IMG/VR virus record: IMGVR_UViG_3300026457_000001
Strand: one strand, 5' to 3'
DNA from: an uncultured virus (IMG/VR IMGVR_UViG_3300026457_000001)
Taxonomy: Duplodnaviria; Heunggongvirae; Uroviricota; Caudoviricetes
DNA: 20,000 bases
This document shows, one piece after another, positions 5,401-16,207 of the stretch; position 1 is the first letter of the stretch; the number at the start of each line of letters is the position of its first letter. A model generated the notes under the pieces. The model was not told the DNA's origin. It did no database searches and saw nothing but the letters and a program-made list of their open reading frames with translations. The position numbers and the translations under genes are program-made.

Positions 5401-6293
5401 TGCCCAAATGTCGATTTGGCATTCGGGTTATACGCCATACAAAAACCAGCATCCAAAAAAGCATTGGCAACTGGCGCAACAAATGGGTCTGTAATACCAT
5501 CAAGCTCTAACGGATCGCCTGAATCAACGTCAATATTTGTACCAGCAATTCGATCGCTTGTTGTAATTCTATTTGACCCAGCTCTTGACTTCCAATAAAC
5601 ACAGTATTCTCGTGTTCCAAGGGCACTGATTGGCGTAGTGCCAAGCCAAAGGCCTTTTAGCGTTGGGGCAGCAATTCCATATTCTCCCGTGCAATAAAGA
5701 CCCTTGAAGCGTTGTTGTGTGCCCTCAGAAAAACACCTACTCCAAACAAGTGCAGGAGCAAGTACAAGACCGCCAGTTAATGTGCCATCACTATCCGTCC
5801 CCATTTTTCCAAACGGGATGGGGATAATATCGCCATACTCTGCCAAAGCAGAAACGCTATCAAAGGCAGATGTCTGATTAAATCGTGACGGTCCAACTTG
5901 ATTTGGCAGGCGAGCACTGCGAACACGTTTGCGCTCTTCAAAAGCTCCAATATCAGGTTTTGGCGCTAATAAGGCTGAGACTGCTGTTAAGGCTACACCA
6001 ACAGCCAAATTGATAAAAATTGCGGCAACAGGTGTAATAGGACCCGCAACAATATCTGGGATATGCTCGTAGTCCGAGGGCCTAATACACGCGTTTTCTT
6101 TTACAAAACGAACAAACTTTTTGTATTCTTCCTCTGTGCAGCCAAGCGTATAAATTAAATCGATTTCATACGGAAGCAATGGTGGATCGTAAAGGCGTCC
6201 ACCGGCTTCCAGTCCACGCGCTTGGTTTGCTGATTGACGAATAGAATCCCGGTTTCCCATGTTACGCCAAACGCAGGCCGCTGATCGTGCCAA
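2409..6293 (-). CDS. Tail tip / baseplate hub, gpJ-like host-specificity protein (true start uncertain, possibly TTG at 6179)
   Basis: 1294-aa ORF with a hydrophobic segment followed by 'LLAPKP', 'YGDIIPIPFG', 'PSNQFTDLVYYLL' and 'FSAGNIIEGSF', as in phage tail hub proteins. It follows the NlpC/P60-like gene. Confidence 0.8.
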   Translation of the reverse strand: MARSAACVWRNMGNRDSIRQSANQARGLEAGGRLYDPPLLPYEIDLIYTLGCTEEEYKKFVRFVKENACIRPSDYEHIPDIVAGPITPVAAIFINLAVGVALTAVSALLAPKPDIGAFEERKRVRSARLPNQVGPSRFNQTSAFDSVSALAEYGDIIPIPFGKMGTDSDGTLTGGLVLAPALVWSRCFSEGTQQRFKGLYCTGEYGIAAPTLKGLWLGTTPISALGTREYCVYWKSRAGSNRITTSDRIAGTNIDVDSGDPLELDGITDPFVAPVANAFLDAGFCMAYNPNAKSTFGQYNPIHNGSAFRFNWEVVSLPKSLRSDDEGMREARSLRRKISGDDGDQPLGGQPGTGRAYGRRMGLIRHTPVGGEMTEYQDRTEINVKANDTIVFRINSLDWNDFAASDYVSNDKNIGKSLKQYGHNLKDLTSAADTWRVRADNLLTVGSRWMIGASQWVVISRDASSPKKIWERGYNVNVTLKCVSTTGTAKIGIAGMRASTEPLGGDEGTAKNPTKHCGAAFYNLVQYDVATVRMVRIADTIEVGIKSQVWNRASGLCNFNAIPSPETLKRKDDKEIQLNTPRMDKYFERTSCFSIWVRPIPEWKETDQPLQAWSRIPIIFCVTGNSPVDMYNYVRIRPRNRGRYEFRFIPHSGSDIAIFQGKDTIFWRLNKQVGTTIGEDFETTYGKFRMTIVGDKVAQSAIAINPELVADPNKTISETTTTESKPKSISVEAFVADNLNANFVLVAYMDQALGDAATQAGETKSVNLTFNGGTGRTITVKLTATSTEASSGPKHIELFGNKWSWVGSYSFTIVSSTGSWAANDAAWNTQVLTRTKYSQHYGYKEVAVKLKIDSVTAGTTVTSVSVDEEGRIFEENSQVSDCSHYVELEKSCEQGPEHQIVYVNEAIADDTVAQYEDMSMIGLSIKSSTSLKTVDQLRAWIETGIDVVRLNDDDAVGPSNQFTDLVYYLLTNKKQGVGGLVNSSLIDVESLRTTGTFLRANKIQYNTVLETPQNFREFMASQAPLLLCNFIIKNGKFGMMPALPTNTDGTINTNAVVVEQIFSAGNIIEGSFSLSYLEAAQREPLSISVRYRDAIPYELPSELSSIVSYNTNKYGTTITENYDLTAFCCSKTQALLTARFLLAVRKHVDHTINFKTVPDGLSIGPGSYIRVLTEDTTYSAGNNALVSPNGTITSVSLIPNGTYQAYVYAPGSTEVTTQTITISNGVVTPALDTGTTLISIQNTNYRKGVYQVEQLTLDEDGLVEVAAVAVPTDADGRSKVAVDVMDSSLFEYLD

Positions 6294-6517
6294 GCGGCAA
6301 TGTCGCCATTGTAGACGGGGTGCGCAACCTGATCTGTGTAACGCTGAAGTTCTTCCAAAATAGCGCTTTTTGACATTCGATACCAGCGACGATCACAGTC
6401 GGGCGCATCAAACCCCATGTTGCGCAACGCTTGTAGTACAAGATGGATGCAGTCAATCTCGCCATTGCTGCCATCTGCGCCAAGGCGATATTTCAGACCT
6501 ATTAGGTTTTCACACAC
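6155..6517 (-). CDS. NlpC/P60-like tail assembly protein (gpK C-terminal domain-like)
   Basis: LIGLKYRLG...IDCIHLV motif and a later GD motif. The probable start is GTG at 6517, overlapping the upstream stop; the ORF track extends it to 6547. Confidence 0.7.
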   Translation of the reverse strand: MCENLIGLKYRLGADGSNGEIDCIHLVLQALRNMGFDAPDCDRRWYRMSKSAILEELQRYTDQVAHPVYNGDIAAWHDQRPAFGVTWETGILFVNQQTKRVDWKPVDAFTIHHCFRMKSI

Positions 6518-6971
6518 GAACCTGGCCCGTGATAGGAAGATTACCAACCAAATTACGCAACAACCTGCGGTTTGGGATCGAAGCCTTAACAGAATCCATA
6601 ACAGTGTTGAGTCTTAACTCAATCCGCTCTGGCGACCACCCACCATTGGCAACAGTGCCGACATATTCGTATAGAACTCGGGAAACGGTTCTTGTTTCTG
6701 GATTCACAAGACAAACACTGATTTCGCCTAACCAACGTTCAGCGATAGCTTGTTCCGCCCATGCTCGCGCCAAATTTGATTGGGTAAGGATGATTGAGGC
6801 ATCCAAGTTATCTCCTGTGAGGCTGGCAGTTGCCCCGGAAAAACCAAACGGTATAAATGCGAAAGTCTGTTCAAGATATGTAACATCTGTGCTAACAGCA
6901 AAATTTTGAAAACGGTAAATAGTGCCGTTTTGGGCGGTTGCTTCTAGTAAATGCCCCAGGTTGAATTCCAT
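6510..6971 (-). CDS. Minor tail protein, gpL-like N-terminal domain
   Basis: 153 aa containing 'YRFQNF...VTY....FAFIPFGFSG' and 'IPNRRL'. It lies between the tape measure and NlpC/P60-like genes. Confidence 0.6.
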   Translation of the reverse strand: MEFNLGHLLEATAQNGTIYRFQNFAVSTDVTYLEQTFAFIPFGFSGATASLTGDNLDASIILTQSNLARAWAEQAIAERWLGEISVCLVNPETRTVSRVLYEYVGTVANGGWSPERIELRLNTVMDSVKASIPNRRLLRNLVGNLPITGQVRV

Positions 6972-9340
6972 TAGATTCCAATCCTGCTACGAGTATTTGG
7001 TGATTGTTGCAGACGAAGTAGTGTACGGCGTTCACCTTCGAGAGCGCCCTTAGTTGCAGCCTGCTGCATTCCGCGCTGGAATTGGTCTGCAGTGACGTAA
7101 TCCACGCTGTTGATGCGTTCGATGCTGTAGCGCACGTCGATTGGCTCCATTGTGGCGGCACCAGCGCCGGTTTCGCCAGCCTGTGTCCCGCCTTTGCCTG
7201 GGATGACAGCAGCACCACGAGCACCAGCCGCATAACGACCCATTGCGGTACGCATCTTGCTGGCGGGAATAACGTATTCGGGCTCACCACCTTCGCCAAT
7301 AAGTGCACGAGTTGGTCCTGTGACAAAACCGCCTTCCGCAAAAAAGCTAGGCGCACCGGCACCAAACATTGATGCTCCGCCACCAACGCCAGCGGCAGGC
7401 ATCGTTACGGGCCCTTGCCCACTAAACATCCCAGCGCCACCGCCGCCACCACCAAACAAGCCCAGCAATTGCTTAAAGGCAAACATGACAACCATCTGAG
7501 CAATGATCTCCGTTGCCATTTGAACGAAAGCATCGCCAATACCTTTGAAGAAATCAGCCAATACTTGTTTTGTTGACTGAGCACCGGTGATGATTGATTG
7601 AAACGCGCTGCTGAATGCGCTGCCAATACCTTGGGCACCAGTTATCGCCATATTGACGGGATCAATCAACTCTTCAAAACGCTTTTTCAGTTCTTCTGTT
7701 TTCTTGGTGGCATCATCTACCGGACCAAGATTGATATCAGTTCTAAATGCACCGGCACCACCGCGCAACGGCTCCCCAAAGGTCAAACCAGCACGCTTAC
7801 CAAATTCTTCAATTTGCTTTTTCAGCTCTTCGGTTTGAAGCTTGAGCGTGTCAAGTCGTTTAATTTCTTTGTTCAGAGTGGTCAGATTGACCCGTTGCTC
7901 CGCATTTTTTAGTTCGCCAATTTGCTTGGCACGATCTTCAAAGTCAAATTGAATTTGTAGTCTTTTTCGCTCAATCTCTGAACTTGTATCGAGCAAAATC
8001 ACTTGGCGCTTGAATTCAGTGCCCAAGCGATCGCCTAACTCAAGAGATTGCTCAATTTCTTTTTTCAGTCTTTCCGCTGCTCGTTCTGCATCAGTTTTTC
8101 CTTTTGCCTTTTTTCCGTCTGTGGCGCCAGAGGAAATGAAAGTGGCCGGTAGATCTGGTGTTGATACTTCGGCAGGTGTCTCCATGCGCTGAAGACGATT
8201 TTGCATTAACTGCAACAAAACATCAGTGACAGGCTGGCGCCGTTGCCTGGCAAGAAAAGCTGCTTCAGCCTTGAGCCCAGTCAGCCCCGTACCAAACGCT
8301 CCACTTGTGCCTTTGAACAACTCACCGGCACCAGACATGCCACCAAGTCCCGCCAAAGGCAAGCGGCCGCCTTTAATTGCTACAGCAGCAGCGGTTGCCC
8401 CGGGCCTTGTTGCCGCATTAATAACATCTGTAATTGTTCCAATTGTCTGGGCAGCAATTCCGCCAATTCCCCTAATGATTGGACCTAGCGATATAAGTAG
8501 TTCACGCAATCCCTTCATCGCGTCAACAATTGTCGGTATCAGATCTTGGGTCGCTGCTACCTGAAAATTCTCAAACTCATTCTGTAGATTTTTAACCGCC
8601 TGAGCGGGTCCGTTCATTGCAGCCGCAAGTTCATCAGCACCTTCTGTGCCCGCACGTTTCAATGCACGGATAACAACGTCAGACGTAATTTCGCCTTGTT
8701 CGGCAAGTTTCCTGATTTCGCTAACCGGCTTGCCAAGCTCCTTGGTTAATGCAATAACCAATCCGGGCGCTTGTTCAAGAACAGAATTAAGTTCCTGTCC
8801 TCTTAAAACACCAGAACCAAGAGCTTGTGTTAATTGCAGCAAAGCTCCGGCACTTTCTGCGGTTGTAGCACCGCTTACTTTTGCGGCAGTATTAAAGCCA
8901 ACAAAAGCAGCGTTAATATCTTCAAGGCTGACATTGAGTGGACGCAGCCGCCCGTACAGCTGAGCAAATTGTTGGTTACTTTCGCTGGCGCTTAAGCCAA
9001 ATGTTCTTCCAGATTGCGCCGCTAATTCCTGCGCTCTCGCAACTTCGCCATAACCTTTTGCTAAAAACGTGAGCCGACGTACTGATTCTTCGCGTTGGAT
9101 GCCAGCCTGAACAGCCTGTTGTGCCGTTCTTAAGCCAAGATATGCTGCTGATAATCGACCTAATACGCCGATCAGCTCAGACGCAGAGCTACTCGCGGCT
9201 CGAAAAGGCTTGGCACCTGAAGCGCCGCCAATATCCTCTAATGCTCTTTGCGCTTGTTGAGCTGCTTGCTGAACCTCACGCAGCTTCTGAGTTGCGCCAC
9301 GGCTATCAACATTGATGGCAACGTTGGCGACGACAGACAC
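6971..9340 (-). CDS. Tail tape measure protein (789 aa)
   Basis: Tape-measure N-terminal motif ALLQLTQALGSGVLRGQELNSVLEQAP, Ala/Gly-rich helical sequence, and C-terminal FAEGGFVTGPT...GEGGEPEYVIP motif. It follows the chaperone genes. Confidence 0.95.
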   Translation of the reverse strand: MSVVANVAINVDSRGATQKLREVQQAAQQAQRALEDIGGASGAKPFRAASSSASELIGVLGRLSAAYLGLRTAQQAVQAGIQREESVRRLTFLAKGYGEVARAQELAAQSGRTFGLSASESNQQFAQLYGRLRPLNVSLEDINAAFVGFNTAAKVSGATTAESAGALLQLTQALGSGVLRGQELNSVLEQAPGLVIALTKELGKPVSEIRKLAEQGEITSDVVIRALKRAGTEGADELAAAMNGPAQAVKNLQNEFENFQVAATQDLIPTIVDAMKGLRELLISLGPIIRGIGGIAAQTIGTITDVINAATRPGATAAAVAIKGGRLPLAGLGGMSGAGELFKGTSGAFGTGLTGLKAEAAFLARQRRQPVTDVLLQLMQNRLQRMETPAEVSTPDLPATFISSGATDGKKAKGKTDAERAAERLKKEIEQSLELGDRLGTEFKRQVILLDTSSEIERKRLQIQFDFEDRAKQIGELKNAEQRVNLTTLNKEIKRLDTLKLQTEELKKQIEEFGKRAGLTFGEPLRGGAGAFRTDINLGPVDDATKKTEELKKRFEELIDPVNMAITGAQGIGSAFSSAFQSIITGAQSTKQVLADFFKGIGDAFVQMATEIIAQMVVMFAFKQLLGLFGGGGGGAGMFSGQGPVTMPAAGVGGGASMFGAGAPSFFAEGGFVTGPTRALIGEGGEPEYVIPASKMRTAMGRYAAGARGAAVIPGKGGTQAGETGAGAATMEPIDVRYSIERINSVDYVTADQFQRGMQQAATKGALEGERRTLLRLQQSPNTRSRIGI

Positions 9341-9366
9341 GGCACAACCCTTTTGCTATCAGCAGT

Positions 9367-9552
9367 CTACCGGCGTCGCTTCATCTGACGTTCTTGCTCT
9401 TCGTTTTGCAGCTCAAAATAACTAGACCAAATCAACAGTTCTTCTAGCGTCACCTCCTGATTCAGGCGAGCCAATGTATATCCCAACTCCTTGGCGACCC
9501 CAAGCTGCAGCAACAGCAGGTTGTCTTTTTTTAGCTCAGCCTTTACGGCTTT
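9367..9552 (-). CDS. Tail assembly chaperone C-terminal extension (gpT-like), probably expressed by frameshift
   Basis: Absent from the ORF track. The open frame reads (K)AVKAELKKDNLLLLQLGVAKELGYTLARLNQEVTLEELLIWSSYFELQNEEQERQMKRRR*. It overlaps the chaperone 3' end, has no ATG near its 5' end, and fills the gap before the tape measure gene. Confidence 0.75.
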   Translation of the reverse strand, partial: KAVKAELKKDNLLLLQLGVAKELGYTLARLNQEVTLEELLIWSSYFELQNEEQERQMKRRR

Positions 9553-9895
9553 TCATGTCTAGGTCTTTTTCTTCCTCAGGATTCGTGATGATCGCCAGCA
9601 TCAAAGCCTGCAGGTCGGCATCCATCACTTCGTTCTTCAGCTCGGCAATCTCACCGGCCTGAAACAGGCGCTGCCCGGCATCGTCAACAGCCTTTGTCAC
9701 CAGTAGGTTCAGCGCAAAACCATTTGGATCATCACCGCCAGGCATCTTCTGCGCACGCTCGCGCTCGGCCATCGTCAACGGGGCGCTGTAAAACTCAAAC
9801 ACGTCGCCGTTTGCCAAGGTCACCACACGCTTCACGGGCGTCAGATTGGCGGCCTTTTTCAGGCGGGCAAGAGCTGACGATGCGGGTGCGGGCAT
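9536..9895 (-). CDS. Tail assembly chaperone (gpG-like)
   Basis: 119 aa between the tail tube and tape measure genes, with 'PLTMAER' and 'AVDDAGQRLF' motifs. Confidence 0.85.
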   Translation of the reverse strand: MPAPASSALARLKKAANLTPVKRVVTLANGDVFEFYSAPLTMAERERAQKMPGGDDPNGFALNLLVTKAVDDAGQRLFQAGEIAELKNEVMDADLQALMLAIITNPEEEKDLDMKSRKG

Positions 9896-9927
9896 AAAAA
9901 TCAGGTGCTTGTTATCACTTTAGACAC

Positions 9928-9955
9928 AAAAAAGCCCCCGGTGCAACCCAGGGGC
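9928..9955 (-). terminator. Rho-independent terminator after the tail tube gene
   Basis: Minus strand GCCCCTGG-GTTGCA-CCGGGGGC-TTTTTT: 8-bp stem (one G-U pair) followed by a U tract. Confidence 0.85.
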
Positions 9956-9981
9956 CGATCTGAACATTCCTCGCAAGCCTA

Positions 9982-10740
9982 TCAGGCGGAGGTGCTGAAA
10001 TCGAAGGTCGGCACGCCAGCAGGGCGGAAGGTGATTTCAACCTGTTGAGCGTCGTCGGGGTTGACGTTCAGGCTTGCGGTCAGCAGCACAGCATCCATGG
10101 CAATGGAGCGACTGAGGGCCTCAGAGCTTTGCTTGTCGGTGTACAGCTTGAAGGCACAACCAACTTGCTGACGCTGCAGCACGTCTTCCACCATGCGGTT
10201 AGACAGGGCGCTGTCTTCGTTGGTGACGTACACAGTGGCAGTGCCAGTGCCATCAGCGAAACCGGGGATATAAGCACGGAAAGGTGCGTACTGCCCAGCG
10301 GTTTGACCGATGGTTGTAACATCAATTTCCGAACGTGAAATTTCAAAGCCCCAGGACTGAACTTGGCCCACGGCGGCATAATCGGCGTAATACACCTCAA
10401 ACTCGTTAGGTGCAGCAGCAGTGCCATCATCAGTGATGTTGACAGCAGCACCGCCAGCAGAAGCGGAAACCTGCAGAGCACCAGAGCTGGCGGTGTAGGC
10501 AATTACGTAATAGGTAGTACCAGCAGAAAGGCCAGCGGGCAGGGTGCCAGTGCCAGCTTCGCCAGTCTGGCTATTAACAACACGGAACTTGACGGGATCG
10601 CCAACCTTGAAATTCAGGTAAGGCTCAACCGTGATGGTTTCAGTAGAAGTATTCACACCAGACTCACCGAAAGTTCCGGTGGTTCCAGCGGGCTTGTAGT
10701 AAAGGGCGCCGGACGTACCGGACAGAACAGTGACAGCCAT
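9982..10740 (-). CDS. Major tail tube protein with inserted beta-rich domain
   Basis: VGQVQSWGFEISRSEIDVTTIGQ...RAYIPGFADGTGTATV tube motif. It follows the tail terminator gene and is followed by a terminator hairpin. Confidence 0.9.
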   Translation of the reverse strand: MAVTVLSGTSGALYYKPAGTTGTFGESGVNTSTETITVEPYLNFKVGDPVKFRVVNSQTGEAGTGTLPAGLSAGTTYYVIAYTASSGALQVSASAGGAAVNITDDGTAAAPNEFEVYYADYAAVGQVQSWGFEISRSEIDVTTIGQTAGQYAPFRAYIPGFADGTGTATVYVTNEDSALSNRMVEDVLQRQQVGCAFKLYTDKQSSEALSRSIAMDAVLLTASLNVNPDDAQQVEITFRPAGVPTFDFSTSA

Positions 10741-10769
10741 TGTTGTGAACGGTATTGGCTGATCAGATT

Positions 10770-11201
10770 CTAGCTTTGCTCATAAGCTTCAAAAGTTATG
10801 ACGACCTGCGTTTGCGAAAACCCTTCCGGTGACGATGGTTCAATGGTGCGCGGACCATTTGCGGCGTCAAACTTTATATTTTCAAGCTGCAAACGTGAAA
10901 ATAGGGTGATGCAACGCTGAGCAATCGTCAGGCCAGCACCAGGACCACCACCACGCGGAGCAAAGATGTTGAACACAAGAGTGCCGTTACGACGATCAAA
11001 GCCTGCACCAGTGCCACGCGATGACGTTGTAAGGATCGTCATGTAGGCAGAGTCACCCCAGATAATGCTGGTTTGAATCCAGCTTGCGTTGTTCGGCGGC
11101 GTAAAAGGGACGTTCTGATAGGCAACCTGAATAGCAGGCGAAGCGGCAAACTCCGTTGCGATCCGATTTTCGATGTAGGCGCGGACGGTGTTAAGGCTCA
11201 T
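10770..11201 (-). CDS. Tail terminator-like protein
   Basis: 'VAYQNVPFTPP...WI' and 'GTLVFNIFAPRGGG' motifs; located directly before the tube gene. Confidence 0.8.
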   Translation of the reverse strand: MSLNTVRAYIENRIATEFAASPAIQVAYQNVPFTPPNNASWIQTSIIWGDSAYMTILTTSSRGTGAGFDRRNGTLVFNIFAPRGGGPGAGLTIAQRCITLFSRLQLENIKFDAANGPRTIEPSSPEGFSQTQVVITFEAYEQS

Positions 11202-11602
11202 GATGATCGACCAATCCGGTCCGCTTCGGCGTTGACGTAAGTCTGAACGTCTTTGGCAATCGAATCAACCCAGCCGTCTTCCGCCTGTTTGCTGTGCCCC
11301 CGTGCAAGGGGTTCGGCGTAAATCAGGTTGTTGTGAATGCTGTAAACATTCCCGATACGCTCGTTGCCAAGGCTGTAATTGACTGCAGTTGGCGCCGGGT
11401 TACTTGGATACTCGCCCTCTGGCTGCCCTTTTGAAGGTGCTGCGTTTTCGCCAATCGCCCAACTAGCACGAAAGCGACCTGTATCTACAGGGCTGGCAAG
11501 CTTCAATCGTTGATCAGCGGTCAACACAGCGGCTTTAACCAACAGATTTAACTGACGTTCCGCGTAATCACCGATCTCACCAACCCTGATGGTGCGTGCC
11601 AT
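11198..11602 (-). CDS. HK97 gp10-like neck / tail completion protein
   Basis: SPVDTGRFRASW and NNLIYAEPLARGHSKQA motifs. Confidence 0.9.
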   Translation of the reverse strand: MARTIRVGEIGDYAERQLNLLVKAAVLTADQRLKLASPVDTGRFRASWAIGENAAPSKGQPEGEYPSNPAPTAVNYSLGNERIGNVYSIHNNLIYAEPLARGHSKQAEDGWVDSIAKDVQTYVNAEADRIGRSS

Positions 11603-11603
11603 G

Positions 11604-11960
11604 TCACTCTCTCAGGAATACTTCAAACACAATAGGCGTATTGTCCTGCTCGATTTTGCGCACCTCAACCACCTGCATAATGCGGCTAGATACAGTCACC
11701 TGATCAGACACTGCAGGCTCGTAGGCAAGATCAGCGGCGGCGATTGTGAGCTTCTTATCGGTGCTCTTTACCAGATCGTTGATCTCGCGCTCAATCACAT
11801 CTTCAAGCACGCCACGCACAACGGTTTCCGATGCTGTTGGTGTTGCCACGCCTGTGGTTGGGTTGTAAGCGCCGGTGGTAATACGTCGGATGGTGACTTG
11901 GCCACCAAATTTCAGCATCAGCTTGCTGGCGGTCTTCCGCAATGAGGTTGCAAGTGCCAT
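11604..11960 (-). CDS. Head closure / head-tail joining protein
   Basis: 118 aa, 'KFGGQVTIRR...GAYNPTTG'; syntenic position before the gp10-like gene. Confidence 0.75.
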   Translation of the reverse strand: MALATSLRKTASKLMLKFGGQVTIRRITTGAYNPTTGVATPTASETVVRGVLEDVIEREINDLVKSTDKKLTIAAADLAYEPAVSDQVTVSSRIMQVVEVRKIEQDNTPIVFEVFLRE

Positions 11961-12214
11961 CAGATTTTGTAGGCGATGCAGGCGCCGTTTGTAAGTTTGA
12001 TACTGGTGAAATAACCAGTCAGGTGAGCACCGGAATCAATGGCAGCACCGGCAAAATTATTGTCGATCACGTTGGTCGAAATGATCGCGTCAACCGTGCT
12101 GTTTTCGTAGAAGTCGATATGACTAAACCTGCCGGTATGGGCAACAGTGTCGGTAATCACCTCGGCGCCAACCGCGTAGTCAACAACAGATGCGCCGCCC
12201 CGTGCTTTTGCCAT
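11960..12214 (-). CDS. Small beta-rich putative virion protein, paralogue 3 of 3
   Basis: 84 aa; shares Y.VG...I.DT.AHTGR...G.FT...L..G..IAYKI with the two upstream ORFs. Confidence 0.75.
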   Translation of the reverse strand: MAKARGGASVVDYAVGAEVITDTVAHTGRFSHIDFYENSTVDAIISTNVIDNNFAGAAIDSGAHLTGYFTSIKLTNGACIAYKI

Positions 12215-12216
12215 GA

Positions 12217-12471
12217 TCAGATCTTGTAGGCAATGACAGCGCCAGCCGAAGCCAGCGTAAACGCGGTAAAGACGCCTTGCAGTTCAAACCCAGCCGGGAA
12301 CGATTCACCAACCAAAGTATTGCCCGTGTAGTTCTGCGCTGTGATGGCAGTGAACGACGTATTGTTTTTGGCGATCACGATGCGATCCCACCGGCCAGTC
12401 TTTGCCGCAGTGGTATTCACAAAGTCGGCACCGATGCTGTAGCTCGGATCAATGCTGTTGGTGTTGGCCAT
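12217..12471 (-). CDS. Small beta-rich putative virion protein, paralogue 2 of 3
   Basis: 84 aa; same motif set, ends in AYKI. Confidence 0.75.
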   Translation of the reverse strand: MANTNSIDPSYSIGADFVNTTAAKTGRWDRIVIAKNNTSFTAITAQNYTGNTLVGESFPAGFELQGVFTAFTLASAGAVIAYKI

Positions 12472-12473
12472 GA

Positions 12474-12710
12474 TCAGATCTTGTAGGCGACAATCTTGCC
12501 GGATGCCAGTGTCACACTGGTGAATACGCCTTCAATGCTGTCGCCTGCGGTAAGAGGCACAGAGGTGAAGGTATTGCCGCTGGCGTTCTGCACAGTGGCT
12601 GTACTGATCACGGCATCGGCCAAGGCATACAGCTTGTAAAACCGGCCGGTGTGAGCAGCAGTATCACTGATGTACTCAAAACCAATGTTGTAGGAGTCGC
12701 TATCGGCCAT
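12474..12710 (-). CDS. Small beta-rich putative virion protein, paralogue 1 of 3
   Basis: ATG at 12710, 2 nt after the adaptor stop (the ORF track starts it at TTG 12716). Same motif set, ends in AYKI. Confidence 0.75.
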   Translation of the reverse strand: MADSDSYNIGFEYISDTAAHTGRFYKLYALADAVISTATVQNASGNTFTSVPLTAGDSIEGVFTSVTLASGKIVAYKI

Positions 12711-12712
12711 GT

Positions 12713-13279
12713 TCAACTCCGTTTGATAGAAAAGTTGCCCGGTCCACTGATTCTAAGCCCGGTCAGATAGCGTTCAAACAACGGCGGCACACGATCAGCT
12801 CCGGTGGCCATGCTGCTGGCGCCCGCAGACTCCACACGCAATGTGCCGATCTGAACCGACTTGTAATCTTCAATGCCGCTCAGGCCCATGCCGTCTTTGT
12901 TGTTGTTCAGGTAAACGGCGAGAACGACCTGAGCCTTTTTGATCTGATCAGGAATTTCGGTGTCGGTGTAATAGTCCGTAGTGATGCGGAACGGGAACCC
13001 AACAGCGTACGTATTGATGTACGTGTCAGGCTTGCGCACGCCAGTACGCGGCCATTGCAAAGCTTGAGTATCGGTAGCCCGTGCGCCAAGAAAGCGTTCA
13101 CGATCAAGGCGCTGCGTTGCGGTGTACAGCGCCCGATTCTTCTGATCGTTCGTGGCTGACGCCCAAGCGGCTACGTCATCGTCTTGAACGAAACCCTCAA
13201 CTATCAGTTCAGCTGCCGCCAGTGTCAGGTAGGAATTTGCCGAGGCCCCACCAACAGTGGCGTCAATCGAGATGGCCAT
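12713..13279 (-). CDS. Head-tail adaptor (family often annotated as DnaT-like ssDNA-binding protein)
   Basis: ANSYLTLAAA, QALQWPR and IPDQIKKAQ motifs; first large gene of the neck module. Confidence 0.8.
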   Translation of the reverse strand: MAISIDATVGGASANSYLTLAAAELIVEGFVQDDDVAAWASATNDQKNRALYTATQRLDRERFLGARATDTQALQWPRTGVRKPDTYINTYAVGFPFRITTDYYTDTEIPDQIKKAQVVLAVYLNNNKDGMGLSGIEDYKSVQIGTLRVESAGASSMATGADRVPPLFERYLTGLRISGPGNFSIKRS

Positions 13280-13421
13280 CGGTGGGCTCCACTTTGGACT
13301 TCACAGTGCGACGCTTTTTAGGCGCCGGCTCTTCTGTATCAAGTTTAGGTGCAGTTTCTTGATCTTGGATCTTGTTGGCCGCTTTGTTCTCTTGGCGCCT
13401 GCGGAAAGCAAAAAGTCCGAT
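13263..13421 (-). CDS. Small charged hypothetical protein, apparent ATC start (alternative: ATG at 13511)
   Basis: Reads (I)GLFAFRRRQENKAA...PAPKKRRTVKSK. GGGAG lies 7 nt upstream of the ATC at 13421, and the stop overlaps the adaptor 5' end. Confidence 0.5.
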   Translation of the reverse strand: MGLFAFRRRQENKAANKIQDQETAPKLDTEEPAPKKRRTVKSKVEPTDGHLD

Positions 13422-13498
13422 GATCTTGCTCCCTTGCTGTAAAATTGTTGGGCTGGCGAGTTGGCGCTCCCAGCCTTGCGCACCCTGCTCGGAACAGG

Positions 13499-13996
13499 AT
13501 GAGAACTCCATTATGGCTTGCGGGCCAAACCTTTGGCAATTGGACTGTCATTGGTGACGCACCAATAAAGCGAACAATGCCTAACGGGGCCAAGCGTTGT
13601 TATTGGCTGTGCCGCTGTGTGTGCGGTAGACAAAGGGAAATTCAAGGAACTTCCTTGAAACGTGGACGTTCAAAGTCTTGCGGATGCGTTGCCGGTGTTC
13701 CGCGATATGAATTTCACGGATTAAGCGCAATACCTGAGTATCGGATTTGGCAAGGCATGAGAGAGCGTTGCAACAACCCAAACCACGCCGCATTTCGTTA
13801 CTACGGAGGCTCGGGCGTAAAGGTTTGTCAGAGATGGGAAAGTTTTACCGCATTCATTGAAGATATGGGCCCTAGACCGGGGCAAACAACACTGGACAGA
13901 ATTGACCCATATGGAAATTATGAGCCTCAAAATTGCCGTTGGGCGACTTGGACAATTCAAGCCTCAAATAAACGCAAACATAAAAAAGAGGGGTAA
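13499..13996 (+). mobile_element. Free-standing HNH-family homing endonuclease gene, antisense to the structural operon
   Basis: From ATG 13499 (165 aa): LAGQTFGNWTV, WLCRCVCG, SKSCGC, WQGMRERC, YYGGSGVKVCQRW and LDRIDPYGNYEPQNCRWAT...QASN, the typical phage HNH-like signature. Confidence 0.88.
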
Positions 13997-14005
13997 AAAC
14001 CCCTC
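13982..14005 (-). terminator. Rho-independent terminator after the capsid/decoration genes, overlapping the HNH stop
   Basis: Perfect 7-bp stem GAGGGGT/ACCCCTC (13988-14005) with a 4-nt loop, followed on the minus strand by T6. Confidence 0.85.
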
Positions 14006-14028
14006 CGTTGTTTCGCCTGAAAAATCAA

Positions 14029-14397
14029 TCAGGCAGCAGCTGCCTTGATCACAGCAAAGTTGAGCACCACAGCTTCGCCAGCGGTAGAACCAACGTTGGA
14101 AACAGTGATCTCAAAGCTGCCGGCGGCAGTGGCGGTCACGAAAGGCAGGTACTTACCAGTGGTAGCACCAGACTTGACCGAAACCAGCACAACATCAGTC
14201 GCGGCCACTTCGCTGTTGGTCACCGTGAAGGAAACCTCAGCGTCGCCGGCAAGCGAAGCGTTGTGCATGGTGATGGCGCCACAGGGCTTATTCAGCGTGA
14301 CGCCAGTGGACTTGCTGGTGGCCTGGGTAACAGCACCGCCAGTACCGCTGACATAGCCAATCGACTTGCCTGCGGTTACTTCAAAAAGGGAAGCCAT
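14029..14397 (-). CDS. Putative capsid decoration / accessory virion protein
   Basis: 122 aa, Ala/Thr/Val/Gly-rich with beta-strand character. It has an AGGAG Shine-Dalgarno, directly follows the major capsid gene and precedes a terminator. Confidence 0.55.
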   Translation of the reverse strand: MASLFEVTAGKSIGYVSGTGGAVTQATSKSTGVTLNKPCGAITMHNASLAGDAEVSFTVTNSEVAATDVVLVSVKSGATTGKYLPFVTATAAGSFEITVSNVGSTAGEAVVLNFAVIKAAAA

Positions 14398-14412
14398 GGT
14401 TAGTTGCTCCTA

Positions 14413-15429
14413 TCAGTCGTAATTGGAGCTGACCGAAGCACGCACGATGCCAATGTTCTTGGTTTCGTACACCTTGCTCCAGTTACCTACCGTGGCCAGT
14501 TGAGCGCGGGTGGGGTTCGTGGTGGTCACGGCCCACTTTGCACCAACCGGGTGGTAGATGTAGTGCATGTCCAGAGACATTGCATCACTCTTGGCGAGGA
14601 TGTCTCTATCTGTCTCTGTCCTCATGCTCGCTTGCTCTCCCGTGGCGATTGCGCCATTGGTGAAGAAATAAGCGGCATAAACACCACCGGAATTGGTGAT
14701 GTCATCGGACACAATCACGCGCATACCCATGTAGGTGGGAACGCGATAGTCGGCGCTGTAGGCAGAAGCCACAGAACCACCGAATGCGTCAGGCATGGAG
14801 GTATCGGGAGTGATACCCAGATCCGAAGCCAGGACATAATCAATGGCCTTGCGCTCAACAAGGTCGTAATAGCAAGCACTGTGCAGAGCCACAGCAGCGA
14901 GCTTTTCGCCTTGATCACCAAGCAGTGCACGGGCCTTAGCCACGTGGCGGGGGCTCAGAGCGGTTTGGGTGCTGGTATCGAAGCGCAGGGCATCGAAGGC
15001 AGGGGAATCGCCACCGGTCAGGGCGCCGAACACACCTTCCAGACACTTGTACAGGTCAGCCTGCTGCTGGTTAGCAACGTACTCACCAACTTTGGCGCCG
15101 ATGGCAGCCATGGGGTCGGAACCTGCAGCCAGAGCAGCAAGGTCGCGGGCCTCAAAGGCACGGCCACGGTGCAGGATCACGCCAATTTGCTTATCAGCAG
15201 TGATCTTGCCAGGGGTGAGGCTGGTGGAATCAGTGAGAACTTCCAGATCGCCAGACAGGTTGGCTTTCCAGAAAGGAACATTCACGAAATCGCCGCCTTC
15301 GGTTGCATTGAGTTCAGCCATGGGCTGAGCAACACCACTCGCCAGAAAGGCGTTTTTCTGGGTGCTTTGCTCAATGACGTAGGGCGTAAAAATTTCGGGA
15401 ATGATCACATCGGAGCGAAGAGTCGCCAC
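14413..15429 (-). CDS. Major capsid protein (SPP1 gp13-like family)
   Basis: 338 aa; 'SDVIIPEIFTPYV', 'GGDFVNVPFW', 'DPMAAIG', 'PTYMGMRVIVSD' and 'ETDRDIL'. GTG start with GGAG upstream. Confidence 0.93.
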   Translation of the reverse strand: MATLRSDVIIPEIFTPYVIEQSTQKNAFLASGVAQPMAELNATEGGDFVNVPFWKANLSGDLEVLTDSTSLTPGKITADKQIGVILHRGRAFEARDLAALAAGSDPMAAIGAKVGEYVANQQQADLYKCLEGVFGALTGGDSPAFDALRFDTSTQTALSPRHVAKARALLGDQGEKLAAVALHSACYYDLVERKAIDYVLASDLGITPDTSMPDAFGGSVASAYSADYRVPTYMGMRVIVSDDITNSGGVYAAYFFTNGAIATGEQASMRTETDRDILAKSDAMSLDMHYIYHPVGAKWAVTTTNPTRAQLATVGNWSKVYETKNIGIVRASVSSNYD

Positions 15430-15459
15430 GGTGAAAACTCCAAAATTGATTTACGGTGC

Positions 15460-15491
15460 GGGCGTAACCCAATGACGGACGGCGTAGCCAT
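15460..15491 (-). promoter_or_regulatory. Tandem TAC-loop hairpins in the major capsid leader
   Basis: Minus strand ATGGC-TAC-GCCGT and GGGT-TAC-GCCC, with cores spaced exactly 20 nt apart. Confidence 0.45.
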
Positions 15492-15511
15492 TCACGTCTA
15501 ACGGTTACATA

Positions 15512-16207
15512 TTAAGCATTGTTTGCGGCAGCCTTCAACCGTTCGTATAAATCACGGTCAGTGCGATACAGCCTGGATTGTTCCGTGAGGTTGAAGTATT
15601 CACGGGTGAACGGGTTTTTGGTGCCGGCCGGCACTTCGCCAGAGCTTGCACGAGCGCCGACAGGTGCGCCGGAACCTTTGACCGTCGGTGCCTTGAACAG
15701 GTAACCGCGTTCAGCCTTCAGGCGTTCTACCCACTGATCCATGGGCACCTCGTTGTAGCCATCAACAGCTACGGGGTTGCCGTGTTCGTCAAGCTTGAGT
15801 TGATCGCGTACCAAGCGCAGTGCATCGTGTGGATTGTGGGCACCCTGCTCGGCAAGGATTGCCACCACGCGATTGTCCAGTTGATTAACGGTCAGCTTCG
15901 ATTCAAGTTCAGCAATGCGCTTTTTGTAGCCATCCTCGCGCTCTTGAAATTGCTGAGCGTATTGCTTCAGGGCCTCTTCGTACTTGCCCTTTGACTCAAG
16001 CTCTTCCTGTTCTTTCTTTCGCTTGAATTCCAACAGCTCCTGAACATCAATGCCGTCAGGAATTGCTGGCGCCTTTTCTTTCTGTTCCTTAAGTTTGCCG
16101 ATCAGCTCAAAGTTCTTGCGTTCTAAGCCTTCAATGCTTCGCTTGAGCTTTTCCAGTTCGTCGTTGCTTGCAGTCTGCGTAGCTTCCTGCAGTTGTTCGT
16201 CAGACAT
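15512..16207 (-). CDS. Capsid scaffolding protein
   Basis: 231 aa coiled-coil (Glu/Lys/Gln-rich), with 'YLFK...GSGA' and C-terminal 'KNPF...NLTEQ' motifs. Directly upstream of the major capsid gene. Confidence 0.88.
   Translation of the reverse strand: MSDEQLQEATQTASNDELEKLKRSIEGLERKNFELIGKLKEQKEKAPAIPDGIDVQELLEFKRKKEQEELESKGKYEEALKQYAQQFQEREDGYKKRIAELESKLTVNQLDNRVVAILAEQGAHNPHDALRLVRDQLKLDEHGNPVAVDGYNEVPMDQWVERLKAERGYLFKAPTVKGSGAPVGARASSGEVPAGTKNPFTREYFNLTEQSRLYRTDRDLYERLKAAANNA

Follow-up and report, generated by a model that had tools for sequence, protein, structure and literature searches.

The tail chaperone locus

The minus strand of the window (the whole 20,000-nucleotide stretch analysed here, from the uncultured virus record IMGVR_UViG_3300026457_000001) carries a siphovirus morphogenesis operon in the order portal, head, connector, tail terminator, tube, G, T and tape measure. 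The major tail (tube) protein gene occupies 9982–10740 (minus strand) and matches phrog_158, major tail protein, with E = 1.6e-6. An intrinsic-terminator-like hairpin, a 9-bp stem followed by a T run, sits at 9933–9956 (minus strand) in the gap between the tube gene and G and was identified solely by match to the consensus. G, the 119-aa short form of the tail assembly chaperone, lies at 9536–9895 (minus strand). It overlaps the T segment (9367–9552, minus strand), 61 codons in the +1 frame that were assigned from family matches and from the positions of wobble variation; in the predicted 175-aa GT protein, T would form the C-terminal portion. The tape measure protein gene (6971–9340, minus strand; Pfam TMP_3, E = 1.8e-37) is the downstream neighbour. 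G and T are therefore located between the major tail and tape measure genes, as in loci of the lambda G/GT type.

On its own, the window G matches only phrog_20784, a family of unknown function. In an alignment of 81 G-family members, phrog_344 (tail assembly chaperone) is matched by 53 and Pfam Phage_TAC_13 by 13. A PDB sequence search gave no match for G. The best PDB match to its AlphaFold model (mean pLDDT 82.4) is the HK97 tail assembly chaperone 2OB9, with TM 0.45–0.55 and an E of 1.8e-3 that falls just outside the tool's 0.001 mark; the model also matches a named chaperone in BFVD (E = 5.3e-4). The T family matches the tail protein families phrog_337 (56/69) and phrog_14766 (54/69), and across the family loci the segment is conserved, out of frame and without a conserved start of its own. 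G is a tail assembly chaperone gene of the lambda G/GT type.

The nearest cultured phage is Synechococcus phage KBS-S-2A (HQ634187), to which G is 71%, T 80% and the tube protein 82% identical, the T match being to an unannotated segment in the −1 frame; from this relationship we infer a picocyanobacterial host. The window DNA is present in river metagenomes. No prophage relative was found when GTDB genomes were scanned with the G alignment, and no tRNA genes were found on the contig. One contig, recovered by its tube protein from a MAG titled Gammaproteobacteria, ends before T and was not counted as evidence of the host.

Several other features of the region were noted. An HNH endonuclease gene (phrog_374) is inserted at 13445–13996 on the plus strand, against the direction of the head operon, and self-alignment of the record indicates that this stretch is absent from the sister genome described below. 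Three tandem genes of 80–84 aa with similar sequences lie at 11960–12716 (minus strand) between the head-tail adaptor and head closure genes. In 19 of 41 lineage rows, by raw count, the T stop codon is also the beginning of a −10-like hexamer (TA[AG]A[ACG]T; 9369–9364 in the window, minus strand), and a similar hexamer is often found 20–30 nt before the G start, downstream of the terminator (about 9918–9913 in the window, minus strand). G/GT may form its own transcription unit.

The junction and its homologues

The 3′ end of G reads GAC ATG AAA AGC CGT AAA GGC TGA on the minus strand. In the +1 frame a TGA at 9555–9553 (minus strand) sets the 5′ bound for a shift, after which the frame is open from 9552 to 9367. 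The −1 frame is closed by TAA at 9545–9543 (minus strand), and the canonical −1 arrangement, in which an X_XXY_YYZ heptamer leads into a T that is open in that frame, is absent. Re-reading the sequence, we find the end of G, the closure of the −1 frame and the open +1 frame before the tape measure exactly as the original prediction gave them. Its estimate of a GT fusion of about 175 aa also holds, as a +1 shift at Lys-115 gives 115 + 60 residues. The predicted shift site, AAA_AGC (9553–9548, minus strand), was placed by conservation across the +1 junctions. It comprises the P-site codon of Lys-115 (9553–9551), the overlapping re-pairing codon (9552–9550), the zero-frame A-site codon AGC and the +1 A-site codon GCC.

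A sequencing or assembly indel, or a decayed gene, might be suspected in a contig that resembles two joined phage genomes. All 90 distinct close junctions (81–100% G identity; in two of 161 records only one of the two genes was hit) nevertheless agree in phase, in a 14-nt overlap and in the motif GA[CT] ATG AAA AGC, which is more than chance would give. Two public-run contigs, X2 record 17 (spanning 9000–10186) and X8 record 25 (9364–9704), show neither a difference nor a gap, and a second strain in run X8 carries 33 substitutions without a gap at the site. These river runs may share a campaign with the window, and the homologues are the stronger control. The sequencing indel that the original prediction listed as a refutation is ruled out by these comparisons and by the lack of any in-frame junction in the wider survey, and the probability we attach to an indel or gene decay is negligible.

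The wider survey covered 503 records, including the window and a second copy on its contig, 18 of which lacked a G or a T hit. Eight viral, one metagenome and two genome scans supplied the records, together with three named phage records; as the sampling leans toward the queries, phase proportions are not population figures. It yielded 326 distinct homologous junctions, 200 in the +1 phase, 126 in the −1 phase and none in frame. One +1 and two −1 junctions were dropped because they lacked the anchor motif. AAA_AG is present in each of the 199 +1 junctions that could be scored, the codon after AAA being AGC in 188, AGT in 10 and AGG in one; where another AAA-A candidate followed within a few codons, as in 16 of them, the earlier one was scored. 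A canonical X_XXY_YYZ heptamer is present in 123 of the 124 scorable −1 junctions (C_CCA_AAA 52, A_AAA_AAC 42, C_CCA_AAG 18, G_GGA_AAG 5, others 6). Across the family the −1 and +1 signals alternate at the same Lys codon. Variable phase among homologues had been named in advance as evidence against a shift. The phase is indeed variable, with 126 of the 326 junctions in −1, but the signal varies with it, heptamer with −1 and AAA_AG with +1, which supports programmed recoding rather than refuting it.

All the cultured members identified (KBS-S-2A, S-2L, P-HS2, MED4-117, S-H1 and CRP-811) are −1; no cultured +1 member was found. In the records of KBS-S-2A, S-2L, P-HS2 and CRP-811 the T segment is uncalled, an annotation corrected here. 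In the Prochlorococcus phages P-HS2 and MED4-117 (L502 and L505, about 1490–1504) T is in the −1 frame and G ends GCA AAG GAA TCC TAA, without a perfect heptamer, where a single slip on A_AAG is possible. Two further loci (L295 and L321) have their −1 site, A_AAA_AAG, three codons nearer the T motif than other −1 loci; the −1 site thus moves too. Four apparent natural in-frame fusions of G with part of T (P0142, P0187, P0262 and P0272) were set aside, each being garbled elsewhere and resembling error-ridden reads.

Conservation of ATG-AAA-A, the check first proposed, is borne out for AAA-A, which is kept together with the AG beyond it, but the ATG is dispensable. The Lys codon of +1 sites is always AAA (19/19 lineage rows), a codon that makes up only 51% of Lys codons in the loci with the window's type of site (site I). 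ATG precedes it in 130 of 143 site-I loci, a strong preference that the proposed slip does not account for; TTG, TTA, CTG, ACC, CCC, CTC and AAC take its place in other +1 loci. A TGA or TAA occupies the position of the window's +1-frame stop in 192 of the 199 junctions. Every +1 codon has G in first position, and 188 of the 199 are GCN. A second +1 clade (site II; 56 junctions of the Marine virus AG-345-A17 type, marine and AT-rich) has the AAA_AG signal seven codons further on, and its +1 product also aligns with the family without gaps. Many protein representatives at 30–50% identity end in D-M-K-S-like tails, which at the protein level suggests that the signal is spread more widely.

The 78.8-kb record containing the window consists of two related phage genomes of about 39 kb end to end (5818–15925 aligns with 44331–54423, and 28456–38878 with 68906–78766) and is probably a chimeric assembly. 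The replication/lysis block is 93% identical over 10 kb and the head block 80–94%, and the tail modules are divergent. The sister chaperone (27851–28234, minus strand, same record) has A_AAA_AAC and T in the −1 frame, and thereby provides a natural control. To follow direction across the family, a tree was built from 41 G-plus-T rows, obtained by thinning 309 eligible rows by similarity within each class and with the junction columns excluded. Direction changes six times on the best tree and in 200/200 bootstrap trees, and the well-supported branches force at least two changes; the root of this tree is unknown and some branches are long. The window's +1 clade (support 99/98) is nested within a clade (96/93) that is otherwise −1. 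Holding all +1 rows together as a single clade was rejected (p-AU 1e-50), as was doing so for site I alone (5e-12); an earlier 58-row tree gave four changes and a p-AU of 0.0004. Within this one gene family the direction of the slip therefore seems to have reversed several times. Re-invention and transfer of the junction by short recombination could each account for this.

Placement and mechanism of the proposed slip

In a set of 64 non-redundant site-I loci, variation falls on third positions of the zero frame before the site and, once the Ala codon is reached, on third positions of the T frame. Between the two wobble phases lies AAAAG, with zero entropy at all five bases. Measured from the Ala conserved in an AKELG-like motif, D falls at −21 and K at −19 of the +1 product in 143/143 site-I loci, and products of the −1 relatives have K at −19 in 116/123. 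Following a +1 slip the tRNA-Lys would meet AAA again in 199/199 junctions.

The −2 shift that the original prediction allowed as an alternative, Mu-like and giving a product one residue longer, reaches the same frame. The tRNA-Lys would then meet TGA, TAA, CCA, TCA or ACA. The first two, found at the −2 position in 192/199, could pair weakly; one of the other three is present in 7 loci. The −2 products lose the D-x-K register in all 102 tested, and in the site-II clade such a shift would insert a residue between two conserved motifs. With the wobble switch at the site and only the +1 product keeping the register, a −2 shift is unlikely and we give it very little weight, a Mu-type event being judged here from register and pairing potential rather than from peptide.

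Alternatively, T could be made alone, without a GT fusion, from an internal TTG or CTG (TTG at 9513–9511 in the window) or from the ATG at the junction. The frequency of that ATG in site-I loci is in keeping with such a start, and, since G itself has no obvious Shine–Dalgarno (SD) sequence in many rows, absence of one before T excludes nothing. On sequence comparison, however, 87 of 196 +1 loci have none of the three counted starts (ATG, GTG and TTG) in the T frame before the AKELG-like motif and in the remainder the candidate starts sit at eight different places. The T-frame coding selection extends back to the site, ACC, CCC, CTC, AAC and TTA stand in for the ATG elsewhere, and a start at the junction ATG would still require a +1 shift. 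We consider independent initiation, which the original prediction had listed as a refutation, very improbable. Transcriptional slippage, with one A dropped from some transcripts, would yield the same protein from the A run at the site. The run is only four A in most loci, set against the A n>7 of cited slippage runs (PMC3711429), and the fixed G and C/U are left unaccounted for; the chance of this explanation appears slight.

The residue after K has nine identities in −1 products, Glu among them, but +1 products are limited to Ala, Val and a single Gly; being free in the one and restricted in the other, it indicates that AG is a constraint of recoding and not of the protein. Although Glu is among those identities, AGA is never seen at +1 sites, and in the site-II clade AGC is found in 52/56 junctions yet constitutes 9% of Ser codons. 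From these observations the AG(C/U) codon would appear to be under selection for recoding.

AGC is the commonest Ser codon of the window's contig (22.8 per 1000) and is rare in site-II loci; a rare-codon pause is accordingly unsupported by usage for the window's contig. Other genes show no depletion of in-frame AAA-AGY (8 observed, 13.3 expected), and the locus flanks no avoidance of it (11 v 13.4, 36 v 34.0 and 24 v 27.2, observed v expected), so that by itself the hexamer can be no more than a weak shifter. No 3′ structure was found in the +1 sets (mean z −0.38; window z +0.48), a weak signal being confined to −1 loci (z below −2 in 12/43). A 5′ SD-like stimulator looked promising, with 0/100 nulls as strong in 32 site-I and 16 site-II loci, but 35/300 nulls were as strong with one row per lineage, a retest that covered site I, site II being a single clade. 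The enrichment was therefore judged to be an effect of near-copies, and the window's own SD-like score equals its null. Spacing of the RF2 type was not seen, at most 2 of 32 loci pairing with the anti-SD within 5 nt, and the A site holds a sense codon and not the stop codon of RF2. As AGC is not rare and no stimulator was found, neither accounts for a pause at the site.

In the site-II clade (L164–L243) a GAGG lies 14 nt, and a strong SD-like run 23–25 nt, before the Lys codon; both occur in 16/16 non-redundant loci despite amino-acid changes, within one clade, and are too distant for an RF2-like stimulator.

The junction in the window is real and conserved and very probably represents a programmed +1 shift, and GT is likely produced at the conserved AAA_AG(C/U) by a P-site slip of tRNA-Lys from AAA to AAA with AGC waiting. 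We hold this with good confidence; re-pairing of tRNA-Lys at AAA-A, as first put forward, is the best reading and is supported by register, re-pairing and the conserved signal. Most ribosomes would terminate at the G stop codon to give the 119-aa protein. In a minority, peptidyl-tRNA-Lys would be on AAA with the Ser codon AGC awaiting tRNA-Ser(GCU), and would slip one base forward onto the overlapping AAA, in line with the P-site slip model (Jäger 2013, PMC3617221). Acceptance of tRNA-Ala on GCC would then allow the T segment to be completed as the 175-aa GT. The lambda system suggests roles for both products: G would form a coat on the tape measure protein, which GT would connect to the protein of the tail tube. 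We infer a low efficiency. Lambda requires about 4% shifting (PMC3296357), and a few per cent may be reached without a stimulator.

The same +1 product could arise with no P-site slip, either by out-of-frame binding of tRNA-Ala at GCN (a Ty3-like occlusion of one base, as discussed for Ty3 in PMC5009743) or by a slip in translocation. That the +1 codon always starts with G and is so often GCN, and that AGC is not rare, would fit such a route, but the perfect AAA re-pairing kept in every junction would be unneeded. We regard this route as improbable, and the P-site slip remains our preferred mechanism.

Significance and relation to known systems

Two elements are new: the AAA_AG(C/U) signal, whose A-site codon is common, and the finding that direction changes repeatedly at a single Lys codon. 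The former is a precise and strictly conserved candidate +1 signal for bacterial ribosomes at a non-rare sense codon; the majority of +1 sites described so far have a stop codon or a scarce one, unlike AAA_AGC. The latter supplies natural matched pairs, the two phages on one contig and the window with KBS-S-2A, which have the same fusion register and opposite slips. These allow testing of whether only the G:GT ratio is selected and of how a recoding signal reverses direction. More tentatively, and in our view less likely than not, AAA_AG(C/U) might be an undescribed bacterial +1 signal that acts through a property of tRNA-Ser(GCU) and tRNA-Lys and not through rarity or an mRNA stimulator. Within one of the large families of aquatic siphoviruses, it would several times have arisen anew, or have replaced the −1 heptamer, at the same Lys codon, and in one case have moved by seven codons. 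Were this so, the G:GT ratio would respond to host serine charging or tRNA-Lys modification in a different manner from that of −1 sisters on the same host.

Full-text literature searches, in which '+1' is unsearchable as a term, yielded no description of AAA_AG acting as a +1 site, of a frameshift in this family of cyanophages or of direction switching within one family; absence is not proven. The available portions of six further sources (PMC3711429, PMC11749239, PMC12846349, PMC9030533, PMC3483164 and PMC12859696) contain no +1 chaperone site.

The conserved tail assembly chaperone frameshift is exemplified by lambda gpG/gpGT (Levin 1993; Xu 2004; excerpted in PMC5009743, PMC3296357 and PMC3483164). 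Lambda G/GT and the window share a site between the tube and tape measure genes, a short G followed by an out-of-frame T, and a Lys codon; lambda's own G_GGA_AAG is carried by five relatives of the window, and the HK97 chaperone resembles the predicted model of G in fold. Unlike lambda, the window is +1, has no X_XXY_YYZ heptamer leading to T and belongs to a family that alternates direction. In phage Mu a −2 shift reaches the same frame and adds one residue (PMC5009743), an outcome disfavoured in the window by register and re-pairing.

According to Atkins 2016 (PMC5009743), −1, −2 or +1 shifts are used for the G/GT pair in different tailed phages, and the event in the window is accordingly less atypical than the original prediction held. 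The HSTV-2 chaperone shift is described as very likely +1 (PMC5009743, PMC8211752), a +1 shift at TTT-CGC is predicted in the HF1 group of haloviruses (PMC7230728), and PRFect lists 350 forward sites, as predictions, in SEA-PHAGES annotations (PMC10885494). These resemble the window in having a predicted +1 phase between G and T but rely on a rare A-site codon, whereas AGC in the window is common. The motif comparison covers the HF1 group alone of the three and sets UUU_CGN against AAA_AG.

A +1 P-site slip in a siphovirus tail operon is also found in SPP1, where gp17.1* arises at CCC_UAA (PMC6316719). That site differs from the window in lying in the tube gene and in having a stop codon in the A site, and SPP1's own chaperone shift is a putative −1 (same source). 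The yeast +1 sites (CUU_AGG_C in Ty1 and ABP140, CUU_AGU_U in EST3 and GCG_AGU_U in Ty3; PMC5009743) are like the window in that the A-site codon starts with AG and the +1 codon with G. They are eukaryotic, however, and combine a Leu or Ala P-site with weak zero-frame pairing and a scarce A-site tRNA, whereas the AAA of the window pairs perfectly in both frames. KBS-S-2A, the nearest cultured relative, has the gene order and product register of the window, but reaches T through A_AAA_AAC in the −1 frame.
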